Origin: a virus
Lineage: Duplodnaviria; Heunggongvirae; Uroviricota; Caudoviricetes
Length of the DNA: 58,725 nt
Reading direction: 5' to 3' (one strand)
IMG/VR virus record: IMGVR_UViG_2718218104_000006
This document shows, piece after piece, positions 54,001 through 58,725 of the stretch (position 1 is the stretch's first letter; every line of letters starts with the position of its first letter). Made by a program: the position numbers.

Positions 54001-57000
54001 GCTTCCGGTTGTGGCACTCCGCGAAATGGCGCAGCGGTAAGTATGGCGGGGTTATTCCTTCCCCGTTGAGGACACCGGGTTGTCAGGTTGACCATACGCT
54101 TAAGTGACAACCCCGCTGCAACGCCCTCTGTTATCAATTTTCTGGTGACGTTTGGCGGCATCTGTTTGCCCATGAACTGATGTCCGCCCTTTTTAAAGTG
54201 AATTTTGTGATGCAGTGAATGCGGCTAAGCGCACGCGGAACAGTTAAAGCTAAAAACAGTGTTATGGGTGGATTCTCTGTATCCGGCGTTAATTGTTAAC
54301 TGGTTAACGTCACCTGGAGGCACCAGGCACCGCATCACAAAATTCATTGTTGAGGACGCGATAATGGAAACGTTATTACCAAACGTTAATACGTCTGAAG
54401 GTTGTTTTGAAATTGGTGTCACTATCAGTAACCCTGTATTTACTGAAGATGCCATTAACAAGAGAAAACACGAACGGGAGTTATTAAATAAAATATGCAT
54501 TCTTTCAATGCTGGCCCGTTTACGTCCGATACAAAAAGGATGCTGGCAATGAATACAGCATTTGCACTTGTTCTGACAGTTTTTCTTGTTTCCGGAGAGC
54601 CAGTTGATATTGCAGTCAGTGTTCACAGGACAATGCAGGAGTGTGTGACTGCAGCAACCGAACAGAAAATTCCCGGTAACTGTTACCCTGTCGATAAAGT
54701 TATTCACCAGGATAATAACGAAATCCCGGCAGGTCTTTAAAACAGTTCCGTAATAAACATCCGATTTCATTCTTATATGCCAGCAATGGCAGGGATTTGT
54801 TCACCCTTAAATCTGTAATGAGGTAAAACAAAATGAGTAAAGTCTTTATTTGCGCCGCCATTCCGGACGAACAGGCAATAAAGGAAGAAGGTGCAGTCGC
54901 TGTAGCCACTGCCATTGAAGCCGGTGATGAACGTCGCGCCCGCGCAAAATTTCACTGGCAATTCCTGGAGCATTATCCGGCTGCTCAGGACTGCGCTTAT
55001 AAATTTCTTGTTTGCGAGGATAAACCCGGTATACCCCGCCCTGCCCTCGATTCCTGGGATGCTGAATATATGCAGGAAAACCGCTGGGATGAGGGGGCTG
55101 CTTCCTTTGTCCCGGTTGAGACTGAATCCGATCCGATGAACGTCGCTTTTGACAAGCTGGCCCCTGAAGTACAGAACGCTGTCATGGTTAAGTTCGACAC
55201 ATGTGAAAACATCACCGTTGATATGGTGATTAGCGCGCAGGAATTGTTGCAGGAAGACATGGCAACATTCGACGGACATATCGTTGAAGCGTTGATGAAA
55301 ATGCCAGAAGTTAACGCCATGTATCCGGAGCTTAAGCTGCATGCCATCGGGTGGGTTAAGCATAAATGTAAGCCTGGTGCCAAATGGCCCGAAATTCAGG
55401 CAGAAATGCGCATCTGGAAAAAACGTCGCGAAGGTGAACGCAAGGAAACCGGAAAATACACGTCTGTTGTTGATCTCGCCCGCGCCAGAGTCCACCGACA
55501 GCACACTGAAAACTCAGCAGAAAAAATCCCCCCTGTCACTGCAGTCATTCGTCGCGAATATAAGCAGACATGGAAAACACTGGATGACGAACTGGCCTAC
55601 GCTCTCTGGCCTGGTGATGTGGATGCCGGAAACATTGACGGCAGCATCCATCGCTGGGCAAAAAATGAAGTTATCGACAACGACCGCGAAGACTGGAAGC
55701 GTATCTCGGCATCAATGCGCAAACAGCCTGATGCCCTTCGCTACGACCGCCAGACTATTTTTGGCCTTGTCCGTGAACGTCCGATCGACATTCACAAAGA
55801 CCCTGTGGCACTGAACAAATACATTACTGAATACCTGACTACAAAGGGCGTGTTTGAAGATGAAGGAACAAATCAGAGCGCAACTGACACTCTCTCGTCG
55901 CCAGTACCAGAAACTGATGCAGTGGAAACGGCAATTCCGGACAACGAAAAAACCGAATGCAAAGTGGAAGTCGAACCATCTGTAGAGCGTGAGGGGCCGT
56001 TCTACTTCCTCTTCACCGACAAGGATGGCGAAAAATACGGTCGCGCAAACAAACTTTCTGGTCTGGATAAGGCGCTGGCTGCCGGGGCTACTGAAATCAC
56101 AAAAGAAGAATATTTTGCCCGAAAAAATGGCACATACACAGGCTTACCGCAAAATGCAAATACCGCACAAAATTCTGAACAACCAGAACCGGTAAAAGTT
56201 ACCGCTGACGAAGTAAAGAAAATTATGCAGGCAGCCAATATCAGCCAGCCTGACGCCAATCAGTTGCTCGCCGCATCACGTGGTGAATTTGTTGCAGGGA
56301 TTAGCGACCCGAATGATCCGAAATGGGTGAAGGGGATTGAAACCCGCGATTCTGTGAACCAGAACCAGCAAGAAACGGAACAGAACGACCAGAAAGCGGA
56401 ACAAAACAGCCCAAATACGCAACAAAACGAGCCAGAAACGAAACAACCTGAGCCAGTAGCGCAACAGGAACCGGAAAAAGTCTGCACCGCCTGCGGTCAG
56501 ACCGGCGGCGGCAACTGCCCTGATTGTGGCGCGGTGATGGGCGACGCAACATACCAGGAAACATTCGATGAAGAGTATCAGGTTGAAGTTCAGGAAGATG
56601 ATCCGGAGGAAATGGAAGGCGCTGAACATCCACACAAGGAGAACACTGACGGCAATCAGCATCACGATAGCGATAATGAAACTGGCGAGACGGCAGATCA
56701 CTCAATTAAGGTGAACGGTCATCAAGAAATCACATCCACCAGCAGGACGTGTGACCATCTAATGATCGACCTTGAAACCATGGGAAAAAATCCTGATGCC
56801 CCGATCATCTCAATAGGTGCAATATTTTTCGATCCGCAAACCGGAGATATGGGACCGGAATTTAGTAAGACTATCGATCTGGAAACTGCTGGCGGGGTCA
56901 TTGATCGGGACACCATTAAATGGTGGCTTAAGCAATCACGCGAAGCGCAATCTGCCATTATGACCGATGAAATCCCGTTAGATGATGCACTATTACAATT

Positions 57001-58725
57001 GCGGGAATTTATCGACGAAAACTCCGGTGAATTTTTTGTTCAGGTCTGGGGAAATGGAGCCAACTTCGACAACACGATTTTGCGCCGTTCATACGAACGG
57101 CAGGGGATCCCCTGCCCGTGGCGTTACTACAACGATCGCGATGTACGCACAATCGTTGAGCTGGGGAAAGCCATAGACTTCGATGCCAGAACGGCTATTC
57201 CATTCGAAGGTGAGCGCCATAATGCACTTGATGACGCCCGTTACCAGGCAAAATACGTTTCAGTTATCTGGCAAAAACTGATCCCGAATCAGGCTGATTT
57301 TTAATGTTCAACCCCGGTCGTTGCCCACCAGCTATAGTGGCGGCGACCATGATTAGCGAACGACGCTCATGGCAAGACTTATTCTGCTCACTGAGTGGGC
57401 AAAAGAGGAATTCAGTGAACCGGTCCCAACTCCGAGTACGTTAAGTAAATACGCTAAAGCCGGAATGATATTTCCTCTCCCCAAAAAAGTTGGAAGACGC
57501 TGGCGAGTGGATCCGCAAGCTCGCTTTGTCGGAATGGTAAACAAGCCGGAGGTGATCGCCACAGATCACCCTGCTTTGAAGAGGATACTGGAAGATGGCG
57601 CGCCCGCGAAAATATAAAACCGATGTTCCGGGATTATCTCCGTATTTTGACAAAAGAAATAACAAAGTTTACTGGCGTTACAGGCATCCCATAACAGGCA
57701 AAAATCACGGTCTCGGCAGTATTGACCAGAAACTGGCAGAAACTATTGCAGCAGAAGCGAACAGCCGTCTTGCCCGGCAGCAAATGGAACAAATGCTCAG
57801 TCTGCAGGAGAAAATTATTAGTGATACCGGCGGTTCATCAACCGTTACCATTTTTCTGAATAATTACAGAAAAATTCAACAGGAAAGATATGAAAACGGC
57901 GAGATCAAACTCAACACGCTGAAACAGAAAGCGGCCCCTCTCAGGGTATTTGATGAACGTTTTGGCACCAGACCGTTAGATGCCATAACCGTAAAAGATG
58001 TGGTATCAGTACTGGAAGAGTACAAGGCCAGAGGACATAACAGAATGGGACAAATTTTCAGGAAAGTACTGATCGATGTTTTCCGGGAAGCTCAGCAAAC
58101 GGGCGATGTCCCGCCAGGCTTTAACCCTGCAGAATCGGCAAAAAAACCGCAGGTGCGGATATCAAGACAGCGACTGACTTTTGATGAGTGGATGATGATT
58201 TATAACGCAGCGGAAAAGGATGGTTACTTTTTACAGCGCGGTATGCTGCTGGCACTGATGACAGGCCAGCGCCTTTCAGATATTTGCAAAATGCAATTTT
58301 CGGATATCCGGGATGGTTATCTTCATGTCGAACAGCAAAAAACAGGAACCCGGATTGCCATCCCTCTGGCTCTGCGTTGCGATAAATTAAATCTCACCCT
58401 GGATGATGTGGTGTCATCCTGCCGCGATTGCGTTCTTAGTCCGTGGCTATTGCACCACCATCACGCGAAAGGGACAGCTAAGCGCGGCGGGATGGTTAAG
58501 CCAGCAACATTAACCGTTGCATTTAAAAAAGCCCGGGATTCTGTGGATTACAACTGGCGTGCTAATGGCACCCCTCCCTCTTTCCATGAGCAGAGATCTT
58601 TATCAGAGCGATTGTTCAGAGAGCAGGGGGTTGATACCAAAATTTTGCTAGGCCATTCGAATCAAAAAATGACCGATATTTACAACGACGCACGCGGTAA
58701 GGAATGGAAAAAACTGGTCATTTGA

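Follow-up and report, generated by a model that had tools for sequence, protein, structure and literature searches.

The 823-residue product of a gene lying next to the excisionase and integrase genes of a lambdoid prophage is probably a stand-alone DEDDh nuclease of the phage early operon, built on a RecE-type scaffold and forming an alternative cassette to a PD-(D/E)XK nuclease with RecT. The prophage, inserted at ompW in E. coli O157:H7, is the stretch of DNA analysed here (the window, 58,725 nucleotides). The predicted catalytic part would be a two-metal 3'-to-5' exonuclease domain of the DexA/Rv2179c family, which long flexible linkers would join to a non-catalytic scaffold also used by RecE. 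This scaffold is proposed to consist of a central helical domain, a conserved SRGEF...KWVKGI motif and a zinc ribbon, behind a head of the YdfE rather than the RecE type.

The gene and its prophage setting

The exonuclease reading frame is complete, starting with ATG and preceded by a GAGG ribosome-binding site 9-10 nt 5' of it. Window positions 33800-58725 are covered by a 100%-identical genome stretch, whose RefSeq annotation was used for the neighbours:

54364-54552, + strand: dicB, upstream operon partner (RefSeq annotation of the identical stretch)
54549-54740, + strand: ydfD/DUF1482, upstream operon partner (RefSeq annotation of the identical stretch)
54833..57304, + strand: exonuclease, complete coding sequence (ORF list), 823 aa, RecE scaffold plus predicted DEDDh exonuclease
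57369-57617, + strand: excisionase (xis), directly 3' of the exonuclease
57595-58725, + strand: integrase (int), after the excisionase

With no gene between it and xis, the exonuclease gene sits in the recE position, at the end of the repressor-controlled leftward operon and just 5' of xis-int. RecE itself (exonuclease VIII of the Rac prophage of K-12) is likewise the last large gene product of an early-left operon near xis-int. The region upstream is 94% identical in nucleotides to the ydfC-dicF-dicB-ydfD-ydfE region of Qin, and a DicF-like sRNA lies within the same operon. dicB precedes the exonuclease in 71 of 80 related IMG/VR loci. The exonuclease-xis-int order was found in at least 56 of these 80, and also in phages mEp460 and vB_EcoS-640R1 and in distant relatives. 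Consensus matches to promoter- and terminator-like sites in window 51800-58725 showed no excess over shuffled sequence, and an internal promoter or terminator splitting the exonuclease from dicB/ydfD or from xis/int was rejected at that same level.

The protein belongs to an ordinary family, already catalogued and extremely common in E. coli prophages. PHROG 2082 'exonuclease' matches the gene product end to end (1-823/823, 1846 bits), and RefSeq entry WP_000048551.1 'exonuclease', from O157:H7 genomes, is 100% identical to it. The gene is 100% identical across many genomes, and relatives are present in 4800 of 5426 complete E. coli genomes (~88%). RefSeq names these relatives "exonuclease" or "3'-5' exoribonuclease domain-containing protein", and many records still call the gene 'exodeoxyribonuclease VIII'. 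A literature search found no functional study of the protein or a close relative, the mentions of ydfE being incidental; the exoribonuclease of an O157 TraDIS study is PNPase, so that work does not concern this gene.

Residues 1-256 are 93% identical to YdfE, encoded by pseudogene b1577 in the cryptic prophage Qin of K-12. Unlike the window gene, K-12 ydfE is cut by IS2E after ~256 codons and lacks a nuclease domain; the window gene is the intact, full-length form of this pseudogene. Homology with the exoD pseudogene of K-12 prophage DLP12 was also considered and gave no tblastn match.

The C-terminal nuclease domain

The C-terminal part of the protein carries the following domain, assigned by Pfam, phmmer, AF2 and Foldseek:

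56753..57301, + strand: DEDDh 3'-5' exonuclease domain, Rv2179c/DexA-like, aa 641-823

Pfam PF16473 (Rv2179c-like) matches aa 642-813 with E=2.4e-67 and 226.5 bits against a cut-off of 27, over profile positions 2-177/177. The sequence-only reading had described an 823-aa frame with the motifs DLETMG, NGANFDN and HNALDDA, and had judged the C-terminus DEDD-like rather than PD-(D/E)XK. All three motifs, at aa 646, 741 and 796 respectively, lie inside the PF16473 match, and all five catalytic residues are present: D646 and E648 (Exo I, DxE), D747 (Exo II, D), and H796 and D801 (Exo III, HxxxxD). The domain is modelled by AF2 with a pLDDT of ~95 (aa 640-820), and Foldseek of the C-terminal domain returned DEDDh enzymes only. 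The domain search and structure prediction which that reading had proposed thus bore out its view of the C-terminus, and the canonical RecE nuclease fold, which it had named as refuting, was not obtained. Its term 'DnaQ-type' holds at the superfamily level and fails as a family name, the family being Rv2179c/DexA-like. PF00929 (RNase_T) scored 21.4 bits (E=3.9e-4), under its gathering cut-off of 24, and the kinship to the DnaQ/RNase T family proper is, as judged from the sequence, at superfamily level only.

The best solved-structure match to aa 641-823, by sequence and by fold, is T4 DexA (exonuclease A; PDB 8KEL/8KEN), with E=1.4e-6 for 8KEL by phmmer against PDB. The top Foldseek matches in PDB were DexA (E=1e-9), RNase T (E=1e-6), 3'hExo, Orn and Cap18. 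DexA residues D7/E9/D119/H186/D191 align with D646/E648/D747/H796/D801, the catalytic columns being invariant between the two proteins. DexA differs in being a stand-alone protein of 227 aa from a virulent phage, with extra loops and 22-28% identity. Rv2179c of M. tuberculosis, the founder of PF16473, shares the Pfam family through a full-length domain match. It consists of one domain and has been described as an exoribonuclease, whereas the window nuclease forms the C-terminal part of a phage protein with several domains. Neither phmmer nor Foldseek placed Rv2179c among the top PDB matches of the nuclease domain.

These relatives bear on the substrate. DexA was demonstrated experimentally to be a 3'-5' DNA exonuclease (PMC12153337), and by analogy with it, together with the operon position and the scaffold, the 823-aa protein would act on DNA 3' ends in early lytic growth. 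Candidate roles are the processing of ends, breakdown of host or competitor DNA, exclusion, and anti-defence. RNA could also be a substrate, the Pfam family being named for an exoribonuclease. An exoribonuclease working on RNA 3' ends in the manner of Rv2179c, with phage or host transcripts, operon sRNAs or host-immunity oligonucleotide signals as its targets, would fit the definition of PF16473, the RefSeq name '3'-5' exoribonuclease' given to relatives, the structural neighbours RNase T, Orn, ERI1/3'hExo and CBASS-associated Cap18, and the DicF-like sRNA of the operon. This reading is nevertheless unlikely: among solved structures the nearest relative in sequence and in fold is a DNA exonuclease, both scaffold and genomic slot match those of the DNA-end enzyme RecE, and no RNA-binding domain was detected in the protein by Pfam.

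A role in prophage exclusion or defence of the 'HREX/EcD' type, in which the 3' ends of superinfecting T-even 5hmC DNA would be degraded and host DNA spared, was weighed as well. EcD, an E. coli DexA homologue of the DEDDh/DexA-like family, was reported to protect against T4 (PMC12153337). The domain family is common to T4 DexA and EcD, the gene occurs in a great many E. coli prophages, and exclusion genes are frequent in prophages. Against this, EcD stands alone and is another protein: the primers used to clone it encode a MIDTET... start and a ...TIPETY end, which rules out identity with the window protein. The proposed 5hmC readers of DexA, W152 and D169, align with Y and A, in a loop alignment that is uncertain at 24% identity. 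A search of PADLOC-DB 2.0 with the 823-aa protein gave 0 defence families at E<=0.01. The gene also lies beside the toxic dicB and ydfD in a repressor-controlled early operon, and should therefore be silent in the lysogen. A defence function of this kind appears improbable.

The scaffold and its relation to RecE

The remainder of the protein comprises the following features:

54833..55123, + strand: YdfE-type-specific N-terminal region, aa 1-97, with no similarity to the RecE N-terminus PF06630
55124..55447, + strand: all-helical domain, confidently modelled and with no assigned function, aa 98-205
55553..55867, + strand: central helical domain, aa 241-345, common to RecE and long DEDDh proteins
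55991..56137, + strand: small beta-hairpin/helix module inside the low-complexity linker, aa 387-435
56264..56699, + strand: recE-shared DNA segment, gene nt 1432-1867, aa 478-622, 78% nucleotide identity to K-12 recE
56477..56542, + strand: CxxC-x7-CxxC zinc ribbon, aa 549-570, with C551, C554, C562 and C565 (motif positions)

Residues 1-97 are not confidently modelled (AF2 pLDDT <50). Database relatives carry the precomputed Pfam YdfE families PF27430/PF27432 at their N-terminus, PF27430 being the one noted for the aa 1-97 region. In nine distant long DEDDh proteins the central helical domain (pLDDT 88-97) is retained at 36-41% identity, and RecE aligns to it from residue 278 on. The small module (pLDDT ~88-92), with strands at 387-396 and 399-407 and helices at 408-416 and 424-431, falls mostly in gaps of the RecE alignment. 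The segment aa 478-622 holds the SRGEFV.GISDPNDPKWVKGI motif, a Q/N/E/P-rich linker, the zinc ribbon and an acidic tail. The zinc ribbon, with a pLDDT of ~81-84 for two 10-residue blocks spanning aa 551-570, is conserved in RecE (ACGQTGG.NCPDCGAVMGDATYQETFDEE). Structural neighbours were sought for the scaffold domains and none were found.

The sequence-only reading had also noted a RecE-like internal segment, and BLASTP against K-12 RecE located it: only aa 262-625 align, with RecE 278-591, at 39% identity (E=3e-61). Identity is visibly far higher over about the last 150 aligned residues, and there is no significant alignment past RecE residue 591. The two proteins are alike in length (866 aa for RecE and 823 aa here) and share the central helical domain, the SRGEFV.GISDPNDPKWVKGI motif, a CxxC...CxxC zinc ribbon and an acidic linker. 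They differ at both ends and in their neighbours. RecE has the Exonuc_VIII N-terminal family PF06630 (E=6e-98), the PD-(D/E)XK family PF12684 (5'-3') at aa 615-850, and an overlapping recT; the 823-aa protein lacks both Pfam families and has a DEDDh (3'-5') domain. The NCBIfam exoVIII equivalog NF007259 (PRK09709) scored 278.7 bits against a curated cut-off of 1269, its best stretch covering aa 452-625 only.

At the nucleotide level, the 78% identity to K-12 recE is confined to gene nt 1432-1867 (436 nt). A second gene, in locus L006, combines a RecE-type N-terminus with a DEDDh C-terminus, and is 94% identical to the window gene from gene nt 1447 to the stop. The mosaic boundaries were accordingly placed at gene nt 1432-1447 and 1867, and from these sequence comparisons the 436-nt segment is likely to be a mosaic junction. 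Every pairing of N-terminal type with nuclease type occurs, four in all: a RecE-type N-terminus with DEDDh (L006), a YdfE-type N-terminus with PD-(D/E)XK and RecT (L093), the YdfE-type N-terminus with DEDDh of the window gene, and the combination carried by Rac. Because all four occur, "DEDDh alone" and "PD-(D/E)XK + recT" are read as alternative cassettes behind a common middle segment. Phage mosaic recombination in this conserved segment would then swap the DEDDh domain alone for the RecE nuclease domain together with recT.

Absence of an annealase partner

The lack of an annealing protein gene next to the exonuclease, claimed from the sequence, was confirmed by three approaches. Only chance-level matches to RecT, Bet, Gam and lambda Exo were obtained in the window by tblastn, no annealase is annotated by RefSeq in the stretch identical to window 33800-58725, and PHROG scans found none among 15 ORFs of the early-left, replication and nin regions. 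For the window alone, the annotation and PHROGs also excluded Erf, Sak and Sak4-type proteins. An annealase fused inside the N-terminus of the exonuclease was also considered, and was unsupported by Pfam, PHROG or fold searches.

The same holds beyond this prophage. RecT, Bet, lambda Exo and Gam were absent within 7 kb of the DEDDh domain in all IMG/VR loci compared (0/80), whereas in control loci with the RecE nuclease domain recT overlapped by 4 nt in every case (80/80); both sets consist largely of near-identical prophages of E. coli, with 98-100% identity in the query domain, and so are not independent observations, and RecT and Bet were the only annealase queries in the tblastn screen of the 80 + 80 loci. 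Within these sets, the type of nuclease domain predicts the presence of recT. Four further, distant contexts of the exonuclease likewise lack an annealase, and relatives with 59-73% identity in the DEDDh domain, like the phage records mEp460 and vB_EcoS-640R1, repeat the layout of exonuclease, xis and int with no annealase.

The gene evolves under purifying selection. Compared with 37 full-length variants, dN/dS is ~0.1 in the folded parts (0.12 in the central helical domain, 0.10 in the nuclease domain), 0.09 in aa 1-97, and 0.94 in the linker 206-240. An ORF of at least 718 aa is kept in 72 of the 80 loci.

A decayed recE-recT module, that is, a former recombineering pair which lost recT and is drifting to a pseudogene, would be consistent with the truncated ydfE left by IS2E in K-12 Qin, with the frameshifted or IS-interrupted copies present in some genomes and with the ORFs shorter than 718 aa in 8/80 loci. 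This reading is largely refuted, and we regard it as very improbable. The C-terminal domain has an intact fold of another kind and is no degraded PD-(D/E)XK, dN/dS is ~0.1 in every folded part, the architecture with xis-int is kept in mEp460, vB_EcoS-640R1 and divergent relatives, and the 0/80 versus 80/80 dichotomy is clean, with no intermediates. The missing partner is not a result of decay; genes of this type lack an annealase as a rule. Of the two options first offered, an incomplete pair or a different role, the 0/80 loci and the purifying selection favour the latter.

The stand-alone nuclease reading offers a reason for the absence. A 3'-5' exonuclease would take away 3' tails, the substrate of an annealase, and would therefore form no SynExo recombineering pair and have no need of RecT or Bet. 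Lambda Exo-Bet and other SynExo two-component recombinases share the operon position in lambdoid phages. They have no sequence or fold kinship to the 823-aa protein and a polarity opposite to the one predicted for it, and the 823-aa protein is without an annealase partner.

Implications

The value of these findings lies mainly in annotation. The label 'exodeoxyribonuclease VIII' wrongly implies a 5'-3' nuclease of the RecE type and a recombineering function. The N-terminal and middle region of RecE works with either nuclease and is found with either; therefore, the role of the long-unexplained RecE N-terminus must be independent of 5'-3' resection and of RecT. A bolder extension, which we consider rather unlikely, is that the RecE-type scaffold is a general targeting platform loaded with interchangeable nucleases of opposite polarity, the DEDDh version being a single-protein system unrelated to annealase-driven recombination. 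If so, the 3' ends of host, competitor-phage or defence-derived nucleic acids, for example, might be destroyed at a site chosen by the scaffold. For a protein that ~88% of complete E. coli genomes carry, biochemical and genetic work would close a gap that is real, though modest.

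The C-terminal nuclease domain

The gene under study begins with ATG, with a Shine-Dalgarno GAGG 9-10 nt 5' of the start:

54833-57304, + strand, ORF of 823 aa

Residues 642-813 of its product match the full length of Pfam profile PF16473, the Rv2179c-like 3'-5' exoribonuclease domain (226.5 bits, cut-off 27; E=2.4e-67), and the protein scores slightly under the cut-off for PF00929, RNase_T (21.4 against 24 bits). The Pfam search gave no match to a PD-(D/E)XK family. The sole solved structures reached by sequence were those of T4 DexA, 8KEL and 8KEN (E=1.4e-6). In the full-length AlphaFold2 model aa 640-820 have a pLDDT of about 95, and Foldseek against the PDB placed DexA at the top (E=1e-9), followed by RNase T, 3'hExo/ERI, Orn, REXO2 and Cap18; the matches listed are all DEDDh enzymes. 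The motifs from which the sequence-only reading had proposed a DEDD-like rather than PD-(D/E)XK C-terminus are all present (DLETMG at aa 646, NGANFDN at aa 741, HNALDDA at aa 796). Aligned with DexA and eight family members, the protein has D646, E648, D747, H796 and D801 at the catalytic positions of DexA D7/E9/D119/H186/D191. That proposal holds, as neither domain search nor structure prediction returned a RecE nuclease fold at the C-terminus; the Pfam match, DexA structures and catalytic columns together point to an apparently active DEDDh 3'-5' exonuclease.

The DEDDh domain family comprises 12,138 clusters at 50% identity (E<=1e-3). Distant members stand alone, at ~180-200 aa in length, and the closest (>54% identity) are C-terminal domains of proteins of 555-901 aa, mostly with PF06630. 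Relatives are encoded in 1275 phage records, T-even dexA included (28% identity).

Relation to RecE and selection on the gene

K-12 RecE carries PF06630 at aa 2-178 and the PD-(D/E)XK domain PF12684 at aa 615-850, both of which are missing from the 823-aa protein. The BLASTP alignment was limited to aa 262-625 of the query and 278-591 of RecE (39% identity overall), with markedly higher identity visible from the SRGEFV.GISDPNDPKWVKGI motif across the zinc ribbon and acidic tail. The DNA match to recE was confined to nt 1432-1867 of the gene (78% identity), and the NCBIfam exonuclease VIII equivalog gave 278.7 bits against a cut-off of 1269, scoring best at aa 452-625. The RecE-like internal segment reported earlier is borne out by these BLASTP and DNA alignments, and the protein has the non-catalytic middle region of RecE without either end domain.

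The AlphaFold2 model is confident for two helical modules (aa 98-205 and 241-345), a small beta/alpha module (aa 387-435), a zinc ribbon (aa 549-570, with CxxC-x7-CxxC at aa 551-565) and the DEDDh domain. Values of pLDDT <50 were found at aa 1-97, 206-237, 346-386, most of 439-547 and 572-636, and linkers are Q/N/E/P-rich or acidic. Nine distant long DEDDh proteins have the aa 241-345 domain at 36-41% identity, and its alignment to RecE runs from residue 278; the domain is a general trait of RecE-like proteins. The RecE N-terminal region is still given as function-unknown in a recent review (PMC11611040).

Regional dN/dS of the gene against 37 distinct full-length variants
aa 1-97: 0.09
aa 98-205: 0.12
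aa 206-240, linker: 0.94
aa 241-345: 0.12
aa 346-480, disordered: 0.29
aa 481-640, disordered: 0.28
aa 641-823: 0.10

An ORF of at least 718 aa is retained in 72 of 80 loci, which together with the regional dN/dS rules out a decaying remnant. The value for the poorly modelled first 97 residues indicates a genuine, constrained part of the protein.

Origin, distribution and operon context

Window positions 33800-58725 match E. coli O157:H7 strain 9234 at 100% identity, and the window is a lambdoid prophage inserted beside ompW, with a moron region of nleA, nleH1-2, nleF, espM1 and nleG. The gene order is cI-like repressor, small ORFs, ydfC, DicF-like sRNA, dicB, ydfD, exonuclease, xis and int, the exonuclease directly preceding xis with no gene in between. 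Other features of the window are as follows:

1-18257, match to the O157 ompW prophage moron region, with T3SS effector genes espM1, nleG, nleF, nleH1-2 and nleA and IS elements
10008-10892, second integrase-like sequence, degraded and sharing 36% identity with the prophage integrase; a pseudogene in the strain TR01 annotation
37629-38842, + strand, IS1203 (IS3 family), placed by offset from 6830-8043 of L007, the RefSeq-annotated E. coli stretch identical to window 33800-58725; interrupts a lysis-region DUF1327 gene in that annotation
42009-42085 and 42166-42241, - strand, two phage-borne tRNA genes adjoining the DNA methyltransferase gene: tRNA-Arg(UCU) and a CAU-anticodon tRNA (42166-42241; Met by ARAGORN, Ile by RefSeq)
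53799-54173, - strand, 124-aa ORF opposite the DicF region, without PHROG match and absent from the RefSeq annotation; probably not a gene
54140-54189, + strand, DicF-like sRNA between ydfC and dicB (Rfam RF00039, 43.5 bits, E=2.9e-8, gathering score 48), missed by the gathering-threshold scan; 5' half same as K-12 dicF, 3' stem diverged
54178-54383, + strand, sub-threshold STnc100-like sRNA match (RF02076, 32.5 bits against gathering 47, E=2.3e-5), overlapping the DicF 3' end and dicB start

The product is RefSeq WP_000048551.1, "exonuclease"; PHROG 2082 matches it end to end, and precomputed annotations place the newer Pfam families PF27432 (tool name YdfE_C) and PF27430 at the N-terminus. 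Residues 1-256 share 93% identity with ydfE, a K-12 Qin pseudogene itself interrupted by IS2E, and the Qin segment ydfC-dicF-dicB-ydfD-ydfE matches window 53819-55599 at 94% identity. The gene therefore already stands in the catalogues and, by these alignments, is ydfE in intact form. It belongs to a very common, previously annotated prophage family: of 5426 complete E. coli genomes, 4800 contain a relative and 3533 have a match over at least 80% of the gene, and protein database clusters have >23,000 members labelled "exonuclease", "3'-5' exoribonuclease" or "exonuclease VIII". Copies occupy a median of 2 and a maximum of 10 places per genome, and these highly similar copies could serve as sites of prophage-prophage recombination. 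In strain TR01 a second prophage lies in tandem at the split ompW site (49237-49501 of the E. coli stretch L002; NZ_CP033605.1 1739236-1741679); this prophage has an int-xis pair of its own, and its copy of the exonuclease gene is frameshifted.

The missing annealase and alternative cassettes

The absence of an annealing protein gene was corroborated: the RefSeq annotation of the region names no annealase, only RusA, PHROG scans of 15 window ORFs found no annealase, and tblastn of RecT, Bet, Gam and lambda Exo against the window gave chance-level matches only.

Gene neighbourhoods in IMG/VR loci, by nuclease domain
DEDDh (n=80): RecT, Bet, lambda Exo or Gam within 7 kb, 0/80, in loci that are mostly near-identical E. 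coli prophages, where annealases were sought with RecT and Bet only; dicB upstream, 71; xis-int directly downstream, at least 56
RecE PD-(D/E)XK (control, n=80): recT, 80/80, with a 4-nt overlap with the nuclease gene

The N-terminus of the DEDDh loci is of the YdfE type in 59 and the RecE type (PF06630) in 16, independently of nuclease type. Two natural chimeras fill the 2x2 matrix: control locus L093 (IMGVR_UViG_2529292726_000025, 4669-8600) joins dicB and a YdfE-type N-terminus to PD-(D/E)XK and recT, and the related locus L006 (5001-7418) has a Rac-like kilR-ydaE-[PF06630...DEDDh]-xis-int order without recT. All four combinations therefore exist, and recT tracks nuclease type without exception in the sampled loci. 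The phage records mEp460 and vB_EcoS-640R1 and more distant relatives (59-73% identity in the DEDDh domain) likewise have the exo-xis-int layout without annealase. The observation is confirmed, and of the two interpretations first offered, a different role is supported over an incomplete pair, since lack of an annealase is the rule for this gene type and the gene is under purifying selection.

Possible function

The protein carries an intact two-metal DEDDh site on flexible linkers, and its gene takes the position of recE in the early operon, with no annealase alongside in any sampled locus. It would remove nucleotides at 3'-OH ends, with DNA the most probable substrate, given the RecE scaffold and position and DexA as the closest characterised relative of the domain (PMC12153337). 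RNA is an unlikely substrate, although an exoribonuclease gave PF16473 its name and the structural neighbours include RNase T and Orn. Such a 3'-5' enzyme would destroy the 3' tails used by annealases, precluding pairing in a SynExo (exonuclease-annealase) system; the absence of RecT fits. In the cell the protein might trim ends for host-dependent recombination or replication, degrade DNA of the host or of competitors, or serve in exclusion or anti-defence. A defence nuclease like EcD/HREX, the E. coli DexA homologue, is improbable: EcD is a different, stand-alone protein, the DexA residues proposed to read 5hmC, W152 and D169, have Y and A opposite them in the 823-aa protein in an uncertain loop alignment, the gene lies within a repressed operon, and PADLOC gave no match. 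Literature searches turned up no functional work on ydfE or its intact relatives.

For this abundant family, the analysis contributes a domain map, recognises the gene as intact ydfE and shows "DEDDh alone" and "PD-(D/E)XK plus recT" to be alternative cassettes behind a common RecE-type scaffold.
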